Sequence record: MW929183.1
Direction: 5' to 3' (one strand)
DNA length: 18,619 nt
From: Escherichia phage FS2B
Shown here piece after piece: positions 11,442-18,619 of the stretch (position 1 is its first letter; every line of letters starts with the position of its first letter). The notes under the pieces were generated by a model. It made no database searches. It was not told the origin of the DNA and saw nothing but the letters and a program-made list of their open reading frames with translations. Made by a program: the position numbers and the translations under genes.

Positions 11442-12088
11442 CATGTGCTGTGTTTAAGCTTTCCACATTTACTACATCTCCAAGTGGACTTATAAAGGGT
11501 GTGAACTCTTTCATCCCCGTAAGCTTTGCGTATCCGATAGTACTCATGATCACATTTGAATTGCTTAATGATTAACTTAATTTTCCACATAAGTTCTCTT
11601 TCAACCTTATATATAAGAGTTTAAAATTCTGATTTGACCGAGTGGGGCTAGCCGCTCGCCGCGCGTTTCCTAAAAAGGGGGAGTCCTCATTTAAAAAAGG
11701 GTTATTGGCAATGCCTTTACCTTCCCTTTCAACGTTCCACCTTTCCCCGTGCCTACTCCCCGTAGTTATTCCCCCGTGTATACTACCCAATACATTACCT
11801 ACCCGTTTATTTAGTTCCCCTTTAAAGAGTGAGAGAAAGGCCAGCACTGTATAATGATTAGATTAAGGCACTATGAATAGGCTAATAATACCCATAAGTA
11901 ATAGCCCACATTCCCCATAGTTACGTTGATAATAGTTTCAATAGTAATGATTATGAGTGCAATAATGATATATGTATTAATTAAGTGGAAAGATAGTAAT
12001 TAACAGTTATTATATTCTTTTATTACTTTCTTTTTTCAGCGTACATGAGCGTAGCGAATGGTCTTTGATGTTTGAGTAATGCTATTAA

Positions 12089-12481: not shown

Positions 12482-12973
12482 ATGGCTAAATCAATGCAGG
12501 TAGTTAATCTGGCAAGTTATGCACTGGTTGCAGCGATTGGTGTTAGTGCACTGGTCACATCTCTTTCTGATAAGGCTGTTGCTAGTCCTGCTCCTGCAAC
12601 TGATGCGGCTAGTGTCTTCTCTAGTTCCATCAATAAGGGTTGGATGATTTGCAACGGTGCGGATAGTGATGGAAGTACTATTGTATTAAAAATGAAGTTT
12701 AGCAACGTAACTAATGATGGCGTTCTCTTTCAGTCTAAAACACTAGACAATCAGCCTAACAATGATCTAGTTCTCAAGCGCACCGATAGTGACTCGGATA
12801 TGGTTACATTTGGCACTGTACAACGTTACGAAGACGTTAAAGCTGTAACCAATCTAGTGAGTTATGGCCCGATCAATGAGTCGATGATTGCTACAACTGT
12901 TTATAATAACGCTAATAACGCTGTTTATACCGTTCACGTTAGTTTAGCCAACTGTATTAAGGCTAGTAAGTAA
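12482..12973 (+). CDS. Secreted or periplasmic protein, 163 aa, predicted Sec signal peptide, function unknown
   Basis: ATG 12482 with SD GAGGA at 7 nt spacing. N-terminus has a hydrophobic core LASYALVAAIGVSALV followed by A-S-P. Two Cys in the mature part. Confidence 0.7.
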   Translation: MAKSMQVVNLASYALVAAIGVSALVTSLSDKAVASPAPATDAASVFSSSINKGWMICNGADSDGSTIVLKMKFSNVTNDGVLFQSKTLDNQPNNDLVLKRTDSDSDMVTFGTVQRYEDVKAVTNLVSYGPINESMIATTVYNNANNAVYTVHVSLANCIKASK

Positions 12974-12998: not shown

Positions 12999-13265
12999 AT
13001 GGCTATCAAAGAAGTTAAGTTATCAAACGGCTTTTCTTGTTTTGTTGGTGGGCAATCTATCGAGTTTAATACACTTGATGGTCAGATAATCTTGCCTGTT
13101 ATCACTTTTTGCAGGATGGAATATCAGCCTCTTAAAGATTGGCTAGCCTTTGCTGATTTCGAAATTACCCGCGATGATTTCAGATCAATCTATATTGACG
13201 GTGATTTGTCGCTGGCTAACCTGCTTAATCATGGTCTGATTGGGGATGATACCAATGGGAAATGA
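12999..13265 (+). CDS. Hypothetical protein, 88 aa
   Basis: ATG 12999 with SD AGGAG at 7 nt spacing. Confidence 0.6.
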   Translation: MAIKEVKLSNGFSCFVGGQSIEFNTLDGQIILPVITFCRMEYQPLKDWLAFADFEITRDDFRSIYIDGDLSLANLLNHGLIGDDTNGK

Positions 13266-13512
13266 AACTATTGCGTTAATTGACACGCATAATTACGGTG
13301 GCGTTACGTTATCTTTTGATGAATCAGTCGACGCTGGTTATTTGTCTTTTCTTTCTAAAGGTGAGATACAAAATATCCGCTTTCCCGTTGTTTGTCTGGT
13401 GCAAGATTATCTAACTGTTGGGAAGTATTTAGCCCAACGCGGGATTCTCCTGTCGCTGGAAGAAGTGGAACAGATTAGCGTAGCATTTTTTGGTGAGGAT
13501 AGCAACCAATGA
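13255..13512 (+). CDS. Hypothetical protein, ~85 aa (alternative starts ATG 13246 or TTG 13240)
   Basis: Track ORF uses TTG 13240. ATG 13255 has GGGGA 8 nt upstream. Overlaps the end of the preceding gene. Start choice is uncertain. Confidence 0.5.
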   Translation: MGNETIALIDTHNYGGVTLSFDESVDAGYLSFLSKGEIQNIRFPVVCLVQDYLTVGKYLAQRGILLSLEEVEQISVAFFGEDSNQ

Positions 13513-13595
13513 TTCATGATTATTTTTGGCGTTGCTTGTTCGTTGTTACAGTGGCGTTATTCGTCGCTGATATGCTTTATTCTTACATTCTCTAA
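13509..13595 (+). CDS. Candidate 28-aa single-pass membrane peptide (MIHDYFWRCLFVVTVALFVADMLYSYIL)
   Basis: ATGA start/stop overlap with the upstream gene suggests translational coupling. Hydrophobic core long enough for one transmembrane helix. Below the ORF-track length cutoff. Confidence 0.35.
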   Translation: MIHDYFWRCLFVVTVALFVADMLYSYIL

Positions 13596-13611
13596 CTAAA
13601 GGTTTATTATC

Positions 13612-13977
13612 ATGGGTGTTATCAAGTTTGTAGTGAAAGTATTTGTAGGCTTCTTTCTGGTTGTTCTCCTGTTAGGTGTCCTGCTGTCATCTATGGGTAG
13701 CGTTAAGGCTGCAACATTTTCCCCTGATACGGTTGACGGTTTACAGTGCACCTATTTGATAGAAAACTATGAAACTGGTAAAAAGTCACCTAAAGTTATT
13801 ATTTTACATGTGAATGATTTCGAACATGTACAATCATACGATAAAACTATTCAACTGGTAAATGAAACCACTGGTAAGCAAATTACGGTGGATCACTTGA
13901 TGCGCTCATCGTTGACGCTCTTTGATGAGTCCATGAATGAAATGGCATCCGGTAACGGTCAATGTGTAAATCCATAG
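13612..13977 (+). CDS. Membrane-anchored or secreted protein, 121 aa
   Basis: ATG 13612 with SD AAAGG upstream. N-terminal hydrophobic segment FVVKVFVGFFLVVLLLGVLL. Two Cys in the C-terminal domain. Confidence 0.65.
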   Translation: MGVIKFVVKVFVGFFLVVLLLGVLLSSMGSVKAATFSPDTVDGLQCTYLIENYETGKKSPKVIILHVNDFEHVQSYDKTIQLVNETTGKQITVDHLMRSSLTLFDESMNEMASGNGQCVNP

Positions 13978-14052
13978 GCTTAATCTTTCTCCTGTATTGT
14001 GCCGTAGTCATGCCTATGGTCATAATTTATCTGATTCTCTAATCCTTCCTGT

Positions 14053-14080
14053 AAGCCTCCTAGTGAGGCTTTTCTCTTTT
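14053..14080 (+). terminator. Rho-independent terminator ending the 12482-13977 operon
   Basis: Perfect 7-bp stem AAGCCUC / GAGGCUU with loop CUAGU, followed by UUCUCUUUU. Confidence 0.7.
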
Positions 14081-14361
14081 ATGAGGTGATTGTATGCCTT
14101 ACTCCCTTTTAGCTCGTTGTGATGCGTTTTAGGCCGCTAAATATCGCTTTACAAGCCATTTTCTATGATGTATCGCGTGCGCCTGCTCTTTTACCTTCCT
14201 ATAGTGAAAAAGTTTAAAATAATTTGCTTTACCCTATTGCAACCTCATCTGATTAGCGTATACTTCATTTCATCGGGTACGATGTAAAACATACAAGGCA
14301 AGAAATTGCCCCGCTCTTTAAAAATCAGGCTAGAAAGTGAAAATATTCTCAAAAAAGAGTA

Positions 14362-14390
14362 TTGACACCGGAAAAAGCCTGATATATAGT
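14362..14390 (+). promoter_or_regulatory. Strong sigma70-type promoter P1: TTGACA, 17 bp spacer, TATAGT, with A-rich upstream element
   Basis: TTGACA at 14362-14367, TATAGT at 14385-14390, spacer exactly 17 bp. A-tract (aaaaaagag) immediately upstream, UP-element-like. Confidence 0.65.
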
Positions 14391-14994
14391 GAGCATAGTC
14401 AGCGATGACTTAAAAAATCCCGCTCTTTAAAAATATGATTTGTCTTACGGGTGGCGGCGACGTCATTACTATAAGGCGCTCAGTTAATCGGTAGAATTGA
14501 TTCCTGATTCATACGTGACGCAGGCGGACAATAAGCAATATCAATAAGCCTTATTTGTTCGATACTTTCAAAAGATTAATGCTTGAAAGCGCACTAGATT
14601 CCCTGAAAGACAAATCAGACTTATCATCTTGCCCTTTCGCATAGATTCACGCGAGATAAGGGAAAGGAATTAAAAGAAGATGATAAAAAGAGTTGCAAAC
14701 GTGGTTAAAGTAGTCCATACTAACCACAAGTTAGCAAAACATCGCTAACTAGTTCCCAAATCAACGTATCGCGGGAAAGGTGGCACATAGTGCAGCGATT
14801 AGTTCAGGTGTAGGCGGCCTGTTAATGAATCAGTAAGCCTTCAATGTGACAGTGATTAGCAGACACTTTAAAAGGCTAAACGCTCTTTAACAATATGAGT
14901 CATAAGTTAAGCCTCACCGCTTAATCTTCAATCAAATAAAGCTGATTGATATATCCTCCCAATAGCGGGAACGACGAAAAAGATTAAAAAGCGG

Positions 14995-15023
14995 TTGACA
15001 GCGAAAACAACATGATTCATAAT
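14995..15023 (+). promoter_or_regulatory. Strong sigma70-type promoter P2: TTGACA, 17 bp spacer, CATAAT; paralogous to P1
   Basis: TTGACA at 14995-15000, CATAAT at 15018-15023. A-rich upstream (aaaaagattaaaaag). Both P1 and P2 are followed by GAGCA just after the -10. Confidence 0.65.
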
Positions 15024-15946
15024 GAGCACTCACTAAGCAAATCATCGCTTCAGTGAAAAGCGTAACAACGGCTAACAGTTGCATAGTGTGAGAAAGCACA
15101 CTGATAGATTTACCGCTCTTTAATAATTTAAACATTCTCCTATATCGGTTGAATATGCTTGATGATAATAACCATCGGAAAGCATACCAGATAAAACGGC
15201 GTAAAACTCCCTAAATTATCAGGGTAAACAGTTTTACATTCCCTTACTGGAAACGTCACCATTGATAAACGGATTCATTGAGTACACGCAAAGACTTGAG
15301 CTAATCGCCCACGGTTAAGGGTAGCGGCGGTCATTGCTAACACGGTGCTACAGTGAAAGAAGTTAATCAGGGTAGGCAAGTCCGACGAATTAACGCTCAA
15401 TTGAGAGCGGCGGGGAGTGGTTAAAAAGTGGCAAATTGCTATTTAACAATAAGGTTTAATGCGAACGTTTACGATGTGAACGGCTTGAGATTCATCATAG
15501 GATGAAAGTACATAGCCGGGTTATGTAGTAAACCTGCTGAAAGATATAAAACGCCGGAATATTAGGCGGTTAGTGACTCTTTCGCAATAGTATCCCGTAG
15601 TGGGCGATGACTAGCGATAGAGAGCTGATACAAAAGGATAAGCGGGAGCGAAAACAAAGTAGACGATATTGCCGACGGTTACAATAACGTAACTAATTAG
15701 AGTCGGACGCACTGCCTTATTGTGATGATTGATCATCGCTATCAGGTCGGCTTCGTTTATAGCGACTAATTAAAGATACCAGATGAAACATCACGGATAA
15801 GGGGGCGGCAAGGTTAACTCCTGATAAGACCGCCCCGCTTACCTATAACTACTTAACAACGAGTGGTTATAGTTAAGTTAATAGTGACTTAAACAAGCTC
15901 ATAGAGAGCGGGGCAATAGCGCCCTTACAATTGAAAGGTGAATATT

Positions 15947-16846
15947 ATGGCTAAAATCTTTACTCTGGTTAACGAATCCGGTTTTAATGCTCTGGCTAAC
16001 AACATTCGCAGTAATAACGCGGCGATCAAACAAGATGTTTCTAACTTCCTGTTAGGTCATTTGCAGCACTTTCGTAGCAACGGTAAGAAGTTAGATGTAT
16101 TGCAGGCGGCGGTTGACTTCCTGTTAACCGAACGTTTCCGCGATATGGATGTTATTGCCACCGCGATTACTTTCTTAACTCCTATCAAGTTTAACACCGA
16201 TGCGGCAAATGGTCGTAAAAAGTGGATTAATCTGGAAGGTGAGGCGAAAGCTAAAGAAGATGCGAAAGAAGCGCAAATTAAGGCCAAAATGGAACAAAAC
16301 CGCGCTCGCTGGTCAAACGCTTTCGAAAACTTTGCATTAGGTCGTGCAATTGAAGTGGATAATCCTAACTTCTACAAAGGTTGCAATGACAACGTGGCGG
16401 CACACCTGCAAATTCCGGCGAAAAACAAGGAAGATTTTAATCAGGATATTTACGCTTTGGTTGAACGCTTGAATGCAATCCGTATTGAAGCCAAATTACT
16501 GGCTGATGAGCGCAACGGCGCAACCAGCGATAACACTATCGCCCTGAGTGAAGAAGTTGGGAAGGTTAAAAAGTCCTTTGATTCACTCATCAAGAAAATC
16601 ACGGCCTCGACGGTAGCGATCTCGGATGATTATCTGATGAACGCATCAAGCAAGGAATTAGAATCACTCGATTCATACGCTGATGAAATGGAAAAGACTG
16701 TTGCAGCTATGCAGGAGAAGTTAGAAAGTCTGCGCGGTCGTATCTCTTCAACGGTTGCTACCCGTAGCGAACAAGCGGCGAAAGCAGAAGAGGAAGAAGT
16801 ATTGCGTAAAGCGGCTGAAATTATGGCGGCACGTCAAGCGGCATAA
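15947..16846 (+). CDS. Hypothetical protein, 299 aa, largely helical with coiled-coil-like C-terminus
   Basis: Track ORF starts at GTG 15938, but ATG 15947 has SD AAGGTG at 6 nt spacing. K/E/A-rich helical sequence. No recognisable catalytic motif. Confidence 0.7.
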   Translation: MAKIFTLVNESGFNALANNIRSNNAAIKQDVSNFLLGHLQHFRSNGKKLDVLQAAVDFLLTERFRDMDVIATAITFLTPIKFNTDAANGRKKWINLEGEAKAKEDAKEAQIKAKMEQNRARWSNAFENFALGRAIEVDNPNFYKGCNDNVAAHLQIPAKNKEDFNQDIYALVERLNAIRIEAKLLADERNGATSDNTIALSEEVGKVKKSFDSLIKKITASTVAISDDYLMNASSKELESLDSYADEMEKTVAAMQEKLESLRGRISSTVATRSEQAAKAEEEEVLRKAAEIMAARQAA

Positions 16847-16870
16847 GTAAGACAATTTAAATAAACATAA

Positions 16871-16903
16871 GGCGCTATCTTAACGGGTAGCGCCTTTTCT
16901 TTT
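16871..16903 (+). terminator. Rho-independent terminator after the 299-aa gene
   Basis: Stem GGCGCUA / UAGCGCC with 10-nt loop, followed by UUUUCUUUUAUC. Confidence 0.65.
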
Positions 16904-16957
16904 ATCAGTGCATTGATTCAGTGCATTAATCAAAGAATCTAATTAAAGGTGACGATC

Positions 16958-17176
16958 ATGTTAATTACACATACCACGATCTATAGGAATCTTGTCAACG
17001 GTCAACATTACCGACTATCTAAAAAGTATGGCGTTGAATGTAAATGTGTTATTACCGGTGAATGGTATCCGTCGCCAATGAAGATTGAAACGTTGGAACG
17101 TGAAGCGATCAGCTATATTATCACGCAAGAAACAACGTTAGGTCGTATCTTAAGAAAGCTGGGATTGAGAAAATGA
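16958..17176 (+). CDS. Hypothetical protein, 72 aa
   Basis: ATG 16958 with SD AAAGGTGA at 5 nt spacing (track used the upstream GTG). Stop overlaps the next gene's start (ATGA). Confidence 0.6.
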   Translation: MLITHTTIYRNLVNGQHYRLSKKYGVECKCVITGEWYPSPMKIETLEREAISYIITQETTLGRILRKLGLRK

Positions 17177-17397
17177 TATTCAGTAGTAATTTTGGCAAGT
17201 GTCCTATTTGTGAGAAACATCGCAGCACGGGAAACCATCGCAAATGTAGTAAGATATTACAGCGCCAACGTGATAACAAACATTGGGATACTGTACACAC
17301 TAACCAGCGTAAAGAAGAAGTTAGGAAAATGGCTGTTAAAGCGTCATTTGCTCAATCAACCCGTATTGAACACATTCAAAGGTATCAAGCATCATGA
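17173..17397 (+). CDS. Small basic protein, 74 aa, with a Cys/His cluster (C-x2-C...H...H-x2-C), possible zinc-binding
   Basis: ATGA overlaps at both ends (17173 and 17394) favour this frame over the overlapping 70-aa ORF at 17192-17404. KCPICEKHRSTGNHRKC near the N-terminus. Confidence 0.5.
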   Translation: MIFSSNFGKCPICEKHRSTGNHRKCSKILQRQRDNKHWDTVHTNQRKEEVRKMAVKASFAQSTRIEHIQRYQAS

Positions 17398-17603
17398 TCA
17401 CTAACATTTCAGAGTTTAAGAAAGCTCCCTCTCGTCTGTTAGGCCGTCGTGTTGTATATCTTTATAGCAATAAAGGTAAATGTACAACCGGACGAATTAC
17501 AACGGTGAGTAGTGCTAACAAGAAACTGTTAAAGTTATGCGTAGCTATGGATGACGGTACAATCCTGCTACGCAGTTGGAAATCGTTTAGTTTACTTGAT
17601 TAA
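17394..17603 (+). CDS. Hypothetical protein, 69 aa
   Basis: ATG 17394 overlaps the upstream stop (ATGA). Basic protein. Confidence 0.55.
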   Translation: MITNISEFKKAPSRLLGRRVVYLYSNKGKCTTGRITTVSSANKKLLKLCVAMDDGTILLRSWKSFSLLD

Positions 17604-17672
17604 GTTATTTGTTCAAGCCTATCGACTTGATGGGCTTGCCCGATATAACTTATCACTGGAAGGAATAAGATT

Positions 17673-18116
17673 GTGGCTAAATCTAAAATCAGCATGAAGG
17701 GCGGGCGTTGTTTTGCTATCTCTGAACTAGAGAAAGAGAAACCGAAGGCAACTAATCACGTTAGTAAGCGTAGTTTAAAACGTCGTGCTGCAAAGGCTGA
17801 GGCTGAATCCCATGTTCCTTCAAGTGTGGCAAAACGTGTAGGCCATCGTGTCCATCGGGCTGATGCGTTGTTATTAGCTGATCATAAACGTTCTTTGTTA
17901 CAGAGCGGGGGAGCTAAAACAGAAGAGGAGAAGAAGTTAGAAATCTTCTGTAATGGTCGCACCCGTGGTAAACAGAAGTTTAAAGGTAGCACGAAAGACC
18001 CGCAGGCTTTCCCTAAGACAAGCCAGTGTGCACCTGATGTTTTCTACGCAGATAGTAAACACAAGTGGGGCGTTGAGAAATACATTGACCCCATCAAAGA
18101 GGCAAGGGTTAAGTAG
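17673..18116 (+). CDS. Basic hypothetical protein, 147 aa, GTG start
   Basis: GTG 17673 with SD AAGGA ~8 nt upstream. K/R-rich, possibly nucleic-acid binding. Followed by two terminators. Confidence 0.55.
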   Translation: MAKSKISMKGGRCFAISELEKEKPKATNHVSKRSLKRRAAKAEAESHVPSSVAKRVGHRVHRADALLLADHKRSLLQSGGAKTEEEKKLEIFCNGRTRGKQKFKGSTKDPQAFPKTSQCAPDVFYADSKHKWGVEKYIDPIKEARVK

Positions 18117-18196
18117 TAGGAATATAGCCCCCTCTTTTAGTACTGTGACGCTCTTTCTGTAGCGTCGTGCCCTCTCCCCATTTGAAGCTTCCGCAT

Positions 18197-18218
18197 AGCC
18201 GCCTTTGAGCGGCTTTTT
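18197..18218 (+). terminator. Rho-independent terminator (first of a tandem pair)
   Basis: Stem AGCCGC / GCGGCU with loop CUUUGA, followed by UUUU. Confidence 0.55.
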
Positions 18219-18281
18219 GCGTTGCTGTAAGTGCATTTGCGAGTGTATTTATAGCAACGGTCATGTGTTGCTTTCAGGTTT

Positions 18282-18309
18282 GCCCCGGCTACGGCTGGGG
18301 CTTTTTTTA
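18282..18309 (+). terminator. Rho-independent terminator (second of the pair)
   Basis: 8-bp stem GCCCCGGC / GCUGGGGC with one G-U pair, UACG tetraloop, followed by UUUUUUUA. Confidence 0.7.
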
Positions 18310-18334
18310 TGTCTACTGTATAGGAATCTATGAA

Positions 18335-18619
18335 ATGAAAGCAATTGTATTATCCTCAATCCTAGCTCTGTCCGTAATGGCATCGCCTGTTATTGCTAAA
18401 AGTGGAAACAATGGCAATGGCAATGGAGGTTGTGGTGTAGGTCAATCTACCAATGGTTGCGGTATCGGAGATTGGTTTAAAGGTGAAAAAGGTGATCAGG
18501 GAGAGAAAGGCGACACTGGCGCTAATGGCATTGATGGTAAAGATGGCATTGATGGTAAAGATGGCATTGATGGTAAAGATGGCATTGATGGTAAAGATGG
18601 CATTGATGGTAAAGATGGC
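18335..18619 (+). CDS. Secreted collagen-like protein, partial (runs off window end)
   Basis: ATG 18335, not in the ORF track because no stop falls in the window. N-terminal signal-peptide-like MKAIVLSSILALSVMASPVIA, a Gly/Asn/Cys-rich linker, then uninterrupted Gly-X-Y triplets (GEKGDQGEKGDTGANGIDGKDGIDGKDG...). Confidence 0.65.
   Translation, partial: MKAIVLSSILALSVMASPVIAKSGNNGNGNGGCGVGQSTNGCGIGDWFKGEKGDQGEKGDTGANGIDGKDGIDGKDGIDGKDGIDGKDGIDGKDG
18527..18619 (+). repeat. Perfect 18-bp tandem repeat (ggcattgatggtaaagat), at least 5 copies, encoding (GIDGKD)n
   Basis: Read directly from the sequence; the array continues to the window edge. Confidence 0.9.

Follow-up and report, generated by a model that had tools for sequence, protein, structure and literature searches.

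Host-type boxA elements behind the early promoters of the phiEco32-like Escherichia phage FS2B and the structured untranslated RNAs that follow them

A stretch of 18,619 nucleotides (nt) from Escherichia phage FS2B (sequence record MW929183.1), referred to here as the window, contains a short repeated motif, CGCTCTTTAA, around its early promoters. Judged by its sequence, this motif is boxA, the RNA element bound by the host proteins NusB–NusE(S10). Its copies lie in a 1.9-kb spacer without a credible open reading frame (ORF). The spacer is a series of units, each consisting of a sigma70 early promoter, usually a small hairpin, boxA, and then the 5′ side of a long-range helix enclosing a folded RNA domain. 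Motif identity, clustering, strand bias, conservation, promoter coupling, upstream hairpins and covarying RNA structures were computed directly. The best explanation, and in our judgement a probable one, is that these units would hijack host Nus factors in the style of the ribosomal RNA (rRNA, rrn) operons for Rho-resistant transcription and co-transcriptional folding.

The source phage is a virulent coliphage of the phiEco32-like type. The window derives from a phiEco32-like podovirus of Escherichia coli (Gordonclarkvirinae, Kuravirus), with phiEc_1 as the top match (98.8%) among 97 related records. Late structural genes occupy the minus strand up to ~11.6 kb, while the plus strand carries an array of early and middle genes from ~12.4 kb onwards. 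This plus-strand array reaches ~58.5 kb in phiEc_1 and has a length of ~44 kb.

Exact copies of CGCTCTTTAA are located at 14312, 14421, 14881 and 15114, all on the plus strand, as described in an earlier sequence-only reading of this DNA. The extension (A/C/T)AAT given there is likewise present in all four copies. When up to one mismatch is allowed, nine matches to CGCTCTTTAA are found compared with 1.5 expected, a number reached in none of 200 shuffles. The gamma-proteobacterial boxA consensus is GYTCTTTAANA (PMC5725501), and all four copies match it exactly. The window contains five matches to this consensus against 0.20 expected from shuffling, and 0/200 shuffles reach five. Copy 1 (14312–14324) and copy 2 (14421–14433) both read CGCTCTTTAAAAA, copy 3 (14881–14893) reads CGCTCTTTAACAA, and copy 4 (15114–15126) reads CGCTCTTTAATAA, each on the plus strand.

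The boxA elements of the rrnB leader and of lambda nutL and nutR were compared from fetched reference sequences. Copy 3 (CGCTCTTTAACAAT) is identical to the boxA of the E. coli rrnB leader, GCTCTTTAACAAT, over 13 of 13 nt, and the same GCTCTTTAACAAT of copy 3 is also identical to the boxA in the early leader of T7. Compared with the boxA of lambda nutL, copies 1 and 2 contain one extra T.

The distribution of the motif is far from random. In phiEc_1 (77.6 kb), GCTCTTTAANA occurs on the plus strand only at four clustered sites, which lie within 0.8 kb and head the ~44-kb same-strand array. One more copy of GCTCTTTAANA is antisense to a plus-strand gene, and three matches to GTTCTTTAA on the non-coding strand of late genes are chance-like, as ~0.3 are expected per strand with this looser consensus. 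The genome-wide search in phiEc_1 thus found the motif above chance frequency and with a positional bias, its plus-strand copies being confined to the cluster. The sequence GCTCTTTAA is unchanged at four to six sites in nine phage records covering three genera, as well as in relatives from IMG/VR and metagenomes. It is invariant at all orthologous copies (at least 20 loci), down to 75% identity in TH34 and even where the flanks are replaced; the core of copy 1 is similarly invariant in the relatives. Phage 7-11 (90 kb), a distant relative used as negative control, has no box on its transcribed early strand. The authors of the work on phage 7-11 postulate an unknown antitermination strategy, and boxA, which had been predicted to be the signal concerned, was rejected for this phage on the grounds of that missing box.

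The conservation is not explained by protein coding. The reading frames that start at the ATGs within the motif run for only 19 and 9 codons, and the distant phage PJNS034 has a GTG followed by an early stop. A protein-coding remnant is therefore ruled out, and the proposal that the ATGs open no conserved ORF and that the conservation acts at the nucleotide or RNA level is borne out. The same proposal placed copies 2 and 3 in homologous segments of ~33 nt. This likeness is found in the window but does not extend to relatives, whose copy 3 is preceded by a different sequence.

Two further box-like sites were rejected. The first, a "copy 5" at 15426–15444 (+) with GCTATTTAACA at 15438, was overlooked in the sequence-only reading and is kept in relatives. 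It is degenerate, with a C4-to-A change, and forms the 3′ arm of helix 14 in the large RNA described below. C4A was used as an inactivating boxA mutation in work on suhB (PMC5725501), and the change that inactivates the suhB box is thus the one carried by this site. The second is the minus-strand motif that had been described as related near 11818–11832. The sequence CACTCTTTAA does exist at 11822–11831, but two of its positions deviate from the boxA consensus. It is located upstream of the neighbouring TAATGTAT element and also upstream of, and outside, the nearest transcript of the phage-sigma type. A further box-like sequence, GCTCTGTAAC, is found antisense at 17898–17907 (−) inside ORF 17673–18116; in phiEc_1 and 172-1 this site is the exact consensus GCTCTTTAA(C/T)A.

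All transcription starts given here are predicted from promoter matches. The early sigma70 promoter P1 (14362–14390, +; TTGACA-17-TATAGT) and its counterpart P2 (14995–15023, +; TTGACA-17-CATAAT) each match the consensus at 11/12 positions, with predicted starts at ~14397 and ~15030. They equal two published promoters of phage SU10, namely 73996 (Table S2 in PMC4281155) and 73511, so that the two promoters noted earlier around the motif are well founded. Copy 2 lies at about +25 from the predicted P1 start and copy 4 at about +85 from that of P2. The SU10 spacer contains three sigma70 promoters, as does that of phiEco32 (PMC4281155), and the 77,554-bp contig of phiEco32 shows three promoter–box pairs. 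The third published spacer promoter is present in the window in a weak form at 14693–14721 (+; TTGCAA-17-CATACT, 8/12), whereas relatives and Table S2 of SU10 have the TTGACA form. It would put copy 3 at about +154, and copy 3 also falls within the P1 transcript. Another weak promoter-like site at 14237–14264 (+; TTGCAA-16-TATACT, 9/12) would put copy 1 at about +42. SU10, EK010 and phiEco32 contain a 10/12 promoter ~120 nt upstream of the boxA equivalent to copy 1.

Across the spacers of nine genomes, promoter-like sites with at least 10/12 matches are followed by boxA in 25 of 26 cases, 18–149 nt downstream of the predicted start, which substantiates the earlier link between the motif and promoters. 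The lone exception overlaps a box and is probably spurious. The small upstream operon is translated almost at once, and its promoter has no box. The variable spacing between promoter and box (18–149 nt) and the constant orientation are what would be expected of an element recognised in the transcript, and not of an operator or promoter element in DNA.

In front of most boxes there is a small hairpin, which ends 1–12 nt upstream of the box. Ahead of copy 1, the hairpin GGCAA-GAAA-TTGCC (14297–14310, +) ends 2 nt before the box, and AGTCA-GCGA-TGACT (14397–14410, +) is located at the predicted 5′ end of the P1 transcript. The boxB-like hairpin TAGTGTG-AGAAAG-CACACTG (15084–15103, +) lies 11 nt upstream of copy 4. 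In 18 independent contexts, the 30 nt upstream of the boxes fold better than background 30-mers of the same regions (p = 0.0013). Four versions of the stem before copy 4 are found, all of which pair, while the loop AGAAAG is near constant. In this stem, 98% of cells are paired, three of the seven pairs are changed on both sides, and 0/500 shuffles reach the score. The order of the elements, with the hairpin first and boxA second, was checked against rrnB and is that of the rrn operons, the reverse of lambda.

The boxes are followed by folded RNA, and the 5′ strands of covarying long-range helices begin 1–5 nt after boxA. Behind copy 2, a structured module spans 14436–14617 (+). Its closing helix pairs 14436–14446 (UGAUUUGUCUU) with 14607–14617 (AAGACAAAUCA) and begins 3 nt after the boxA consensus of copy 2. 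The consensus fold of this first module comprises 47 pairs, with 96.8% of cells paired and nine pairs changed on both sides, compared with 0–2 in slid controls and with 0/500 shuffles reaching the score. The unclassified phage PJNS034 also has the module (~180 nt), as does TH34, where a box stands on either side of it (counterparts at L009 3016–3200 and L006 1841–2010); it is without a conserved ORF. It is deleted in MN03, 172-1, SU7 and PAS59 and is therefore dispensable. A search of IMG/VR for distant copies with two conserved blocks as query gave 41 matches, which are at chance level apart from the known relatives. A short structured module follows at 14621–14686 (+; TTATCATCTT ... AAGATGATAA), with boxA 1–2 nt ahead of it in 7 of 13 related genomes. 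Upstream of P2, the spacer is a mosaic of deletions and duplications, the end points of which often fall at a box.

The largest folded RNA is associated with copy 4. It is a structured untranslated RNA of ~820 nt (15115–15946, +), of which 15127–15925 (~800 nt) holds 33 predicted helices. The stretch between copy 4 and the first ORF measures 829–837 nt in eight phages, which represent three genera, and shows 88% column identity and no conserved ORF. The RNAalifold prediction comprises 232 pairs, distributed over 33 helices, and its covariation term is −24 kcal/mol. In this structure, which was predicted from the same eight sequences as those tested and represents few lineages, 98.0% of cells are paired and 63 pairs are changed on both sides, compared with 4–10 in slid controls; the covariation score is 0.292 against 0.04–0.07 in these controls, and 0/500 shuffles reach it. 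G-U accounts for 10.6% of the pair cells against 12 A-C cells, and the plus-strand transcript is therefore the folding strand. Helix 2 (15127–15140 with 15412–15425) starts ~2 nt after copy 4, closes a domain of ~290 nt, and contains three compensatory pairs.

The large RNA is present at full length and as one aligned piece in 97/97 matching phage records, where it is nearly always unannotated. No relative was found in 5,426 E. coli genomes, and Rfam 15 gave no match at the gathering score and none that beats chance at E up to 10. A wider sample was sought via the downstream protein, and the scans of viral contigs and metagenomes each yielded only five close relatives. A literature search linking phiEco32-like phages with boxA or non-coding RNA found nothing within its coverage, outside which the two primary papers on phiEco32 transcription (Savalia 2008, Pavlova 2012) lie.

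Just upstream of the first ORF, UAGAGAGC at 15902–15909 (+) is the complement of the boxA core. In the RNAalifold structure it forms, together with copy 4 (15115–15122), a helix that encloses the whole large RNA; all positions are invariant, so that there is no covariation evidence, and ~0.4 occurrences of such an 8-nt complementarity between boxA and UAGAGAGC are expected by chance. The copy 1 region (14305–14320) also has an inverted match of 15/16 with 15902–15917. The downstream element was rejected as a long-range partner specific to copy 1, as it is kept even in SU10, which is without the GCCCCGCTC box context, and partly forms a covarying hairpin of its own.

The spacer as a whole opens at an intrinsic-terminator-like hairpin (14053–14071, +), which closes a small four-gene upstream early operon. 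SU10 and SU7 annotations place a terminator at the equivalent position, and a terminator after the small upstream operon has been described (PMC4281155). The spacer ends at the ATG at 15947, where the first ORF after the leader (15947–16846, +; 299 amino acids) heads the long plus-strand gene array. Over three frames, the untranslated leader contains 136 stop codons, and its longest open stretch is 41 codons. ARAGORN detected no transfer RNA (tRNA) in the spacer. A search of the whole window against Rfam 15 was negative at the gathering score, and a search of 13900–16000 at E up to 10 gave only four chance-level matches. Thus, tRNA and known RNA families were rejected for this region.

The closest known parallel to this arrangement is the leader of the rrn operons. 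Both systems have tandem strong sigma70 promoters, a hairpin followed a few nt later by boxA (identical over 13 nt in the case of copy 3), and, directly after boxA, the 5′ side of a long-range helix within which a long structured untranslated RNA is enclosed. There are also differences. The rrn operons carry one box after both promoters, whereas the phage has one box per promoter. The RNAs enclosed in the phage are phage-specific and unrelated to rRNA, and in the phage only, the last RNA runs on into messenger RNA (mRNA).

As the phage units repeat the logic of rrn, with a strong promoter, a hairpin, boxA, and a long-range helix strand around untranslated folded RNA, it is proposed that the boxes load Nus factors onto host RNA polymerase at each early promoter. 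Everything past sequence identity is inferred by us, including the binding of Nus factors, the resistance to Rho and the help with folding. In rrn, boxA is necessary and sufficient for an antitermination complex (NusA, NusB, NusE, NusG, SuhB, S4) that resists Rho, and it has been proposed that this complex, by its binding to boxA, retains the leader strand close to the exit channel for RNA until pairing with the trailer strand occurs (PMC10250234). Furthermore, boxA shields long untranslated transcripts of CRISPR (clustered regularly interspaced short palindromic repeats) arrays from Rho (PMC7665894). By analogy, boxA emerging from RNA polymerase in the phage would recruit NusB/NusE and with them NusA, NusG and SuhB. 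The polymerase modified in this way would withstand Rho on RNA unprotected by ribosomes, and would elongate faster and more processively. The 5′ strand would be kept close to the RNA exit channel until its distant partner has been transcribed, and this would help long RNAs to fold. Transcription could thereby proceed in a Rho-resistant manner over 0.2–0.8 kb of RNA free of ribosomes and then into the long gene array. The last unit, comprising P2, its hairpin and copy 4, would head an ~820-nt RNA fused to the mRNA of the ~44-kb array of early and middle genes.

Other systems resemble the phage units in part. T7 carries CGCTCTTTAACAAT as a 14-mer at 812–825 (locus L014), after promoters A1–A3 and before gene 0.3. 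Like FS2B, it is a virulent coliphage with clustered strong host-type early promoters and a consensus boxA ahead of its first early gene. T7, however, has a single box and a leader of ~100 nt, whereas FS2B has four boxes and structured RNAs of 0.2–0.8 kb. No open literature on the function of the T7 box was found. The boxA in leaders of CRISPR arrays (Stringer et al. 2020, PMC7665894) likewise matches the consensus, stands upstream of a long untranslated transcript, and counters Rho. It belongs to a host locus and precedes repeat–spacer RNA, while the boxes described here belong to a phage locus and precede folded RNA. The boxA in the 5′ untranslated region of suhB (Baniulyte et al. 2017, PMC5725501) conforms to the same consensus and is an example from outside rRNA and lambdoid phages.

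Similar arrangements appear to exist in further phages. When viral contigs were searched for a consensus box 10–40 nt behind a sigma70 promoter, at least 120 stretches were returned, compared with a chance level of a few tens in the whole collection, which is derived from a rough guess of the collection size. Among the matches listed, 21/120 have a second box on the same strand within 1.5 kb, while ~0.3% would be expected by chance. T7-like viral contigs contain three boxes within 1.5 kb, and in other viral contigs, promoter and box stand directly ahead of tRNA genes (IMG/VR loci L019, L020, L069, L070, L093, L111, L116 and L122). This suggests that boxA behind early promoters is a general and under-annotated phage feature.

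Several observations weigh against the proposed recruitment of Nus factors. In rrn, boxB, boxA and boxC follow both P1 and P2, and the rrnB leader reads hairpin-ac-TGCTCTTTAACAAT with TCTGTGTGGG 18 nt further on. The phage is without this last element; boxC (UCUGUGUGGG) was sought 18–19 nt after boxA, and no match with up to two mismatches was found anywhere in 13300–18619. The predicted accessibility of the boxes in short nascent transcripts is only modestly above average for copy 2 (mean unpaired probability 0.91) and copy 1 (0.73), and copies 3 and 4 are at about the transcript average. Copies 1 and 3 in this window are preceded only by weak promoter-like sites (8–9/12). The leader is not notably C-rich or G-poor and contains only three C-over-G windows, so that a Rho-loading signature was set aside as uninformative evidence. 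According to one paper, moreover, rRNA resists Rho by itself, and Nus factors act on it mainly in folding. Finally, strong intrinsic-terminator-like hairpins are found in the downstream plus-strand array at 16869–16896, 18197–18214 and 18282–18301; they follow the 299-aa ORF and ORF 17673–18116. Such hairpins inside the array imply read-through or internal promoters. Complexes of the rrn type cope poorly with intrinsic terminators, and another factor or internal promoters may therefore be needed.

The downstream terminators are also the point at which the main rival, a lambda-type system with an N-like protein, comes into play. Here, boxA and an adjacent hairpin serving as boxB would form nut sites that are read by a phage protein, and intrinsic terminators would be overridden as well. 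On balance, this is considered unlikely. The boxA core of nutL (CGCTCTTAAAAATT; CGCTCTTACACATT in nutR) is similar to that found here (CGCTCTTTAAAAAT), although the lambda boxA is one T shorter, and in both cases the element occurs in early transcripts just after the promoter with a hairpin alongside. Hairpins stand beside most boxes in the phage, several of their loops are GNRA-like or rich in GAAA/GAAGA, and in the hairpin ahead of copy 4 a variable stem carries a conserved loop. As with N and nutL, ORFs for small basic proteins follow shortly downstream, and one of them, ORF 17673–18116, contains KRSLKRRAAKA and is followed by strong terminators.

The order of the elements, however, contradicts a nut site. 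In lambda, the boxB hairpin read by N is 3′ of boxA. A boxA followed by a 3′ hairpin with a GNRA-like pentaloop was sought at the phage boxes, and the hairpins were found 5′ of boxA with loops of 3–11 nt. As the loop sequences differ among copies and relatives, they argue against one sequence-specific reader. No antiterminator family was detected by Pfam, PHROGs or NCBIfam in nine flanking proteins, and the immediate-early proteins are acidic. An N-like protein is accordingly considered unlikely, given the lack of family matches among these nine proteins and of an arginine-rich motif in the upstream operon. Two basic early proteins deserve mention in their own right. The product of 17673–18116 (+) has a net charge of +18 in addition to KRSLKRRAAKA, and that of 17173–17397 (+) has a charge of +10 and a CPIC...H...C motif. 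Both are possible nucleic-acid binders.

Less probable still is that the boxes act negatively. Either they would cause repression and Rho termination as in suhB, or abundant leaders would titrate NusB/NusE away from the rRNA operons and contribute to host shut-off. Nus factors bound to boxA can indeed repress (PMC5725501). Each genome has three to five boxes behind near-consensus promoters, and two boxes may share one transcript, as with copies 2 and 3. In comparison with suhB, where repression was tested only to 100 nt (PMC5725501), the start codon nearest to copy 4 is more than 800 nt away. The boxes also head genes that the phage must express, and the sequence does not distinguish a sink from a normal loading site.

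The motif had also been considered as an RNA processing site. A processing or stability signal, for instance an entry site for RNase E or RNase III that frees structured modules from the primary transcript, would fit boxes that border folded modules and whose A/U-rich core is probably single-stranded. Yet an exact identity with boxA over 11–13 nt is unneeded for RNase E, no RNase consensus matches the motif, and the leaders of rrn, lambda and T7 share the box, whose partner there is NusB/NusE. This reading is less parsimonious than boxA and very improbable as the explanation of the motif, while the two roles are not mutually exclusive.

Least credible of all is a site at the DNA level. The motif would then be bound as an operator by a regulator of phage or host origin, for instance the sigma70 inhibitor gp79, or be used as a promoter element by the phage sigma factor gp36. 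It is indeed close to promoters, but all copies are on a single strand at promoter distances of 18–149 nt, the motif is not palindromic, and the gp36 consensus tAATGTAtA is unrelated to it. The suggestions of the sequence-only reading that the motif serves a phage-specific regulator or a phage-encoded sigma factor thus give way to the exact match with boxA, the site of host NusB–NusE(S10), and to the dissimilarity from the published consensus. The gp36 promoter consists of tAATGTAtA located 6–8 nt upstream of the transcription start (PMC4281155). With up to one mismatch, it occurs in the window at 2877, 10291 and 11789 on the minus strand, along with two chance-level matches on the plus strand, and is not found in the spacer (14000–16000). 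The site at 2877–2885 (−) is an exact TAATGTATA. At 11789–11797 (−), TAATGTATT has one mismatch to the consensus and lies ~25 nt downstream of the minus-strand CACTCTTTAA (11822–11831).

Additional features were observed outside the spacer. The first early ORF (12482–12973, +) encodes 163 amino acids compared with 290 in phiEc_1 and covers only positions 129–290 of PHROG 36409, which is due to either a truncation or an alternative start in the FS2B genome. The proteins encoded by 12999–13265 (+; 88 amino acids) and 13612–13977 (+; 121 amino acids) are labelled "polymerase" and "terminase", respectively, in relatives, with labels inherited from PHROG annotations. These names lack Pfam support and look like annotation artefacts; the N-terminus of the 121-aa protein is hydrophobic. 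Near the start of the window, TCTTTGTGGA occurs twice on the minus strand, 282 nt apart (115–124 and 397–406), and is accompanied by paired 40-aa ORFs at 56–178 and 338–460. This suggests a direct repeat of ~282 bp (56–460).

The recruitment of Nus factors by boxA is textbook knowledge for lambda and for rRNA operons. Lately, the use of boxA has been extended to suhB (PMC5725501) and to CRISPR arrays (PMC7665894). The present case adds a strictly virulent phage with its own sigma factor that puts a host-type boxA after each early promoter. The boxA itself is of a kind already known, as T7 has the same box. The large RNA of ~820 nt is the more novel part and the one furthest from anything described. 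More tentatively, and with less confidence than is placed in Nus recruitment as such, the boxA units could be regarded as the front end of an rRNA-operon-like system that makes the structured non-coding RNAs of the phage itself. The chief product would be the ~820-nt RNA, representing a new family of large bacterial-virus RNA, with Nus factors needed for its folding and for shielding from Rho. The boxes, being heavily transcribed, may in addition divert Nus factors from host ribosome synthesis.

For the annotation of such genomes, the promoters, boxA sites and non-coding RNA of the spacer should be labelled, instead of leaving the region blank or filling it with short spurious ORFs. For the biology of these phages, the boxA units offer a testable account of how 1–2 kb of untranslated RNA, and then ~44 kb of genes, may be transcribed from few host-type promoters. 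What the boxes appear to serve is an RNA of ~0.8 kb that is universally conserved and contains dozens of covarying helices. This opens two questions, namely which role large structured RNAs play in lytic phages, and whether Nus factors may act as chaperones beyond rRNA.

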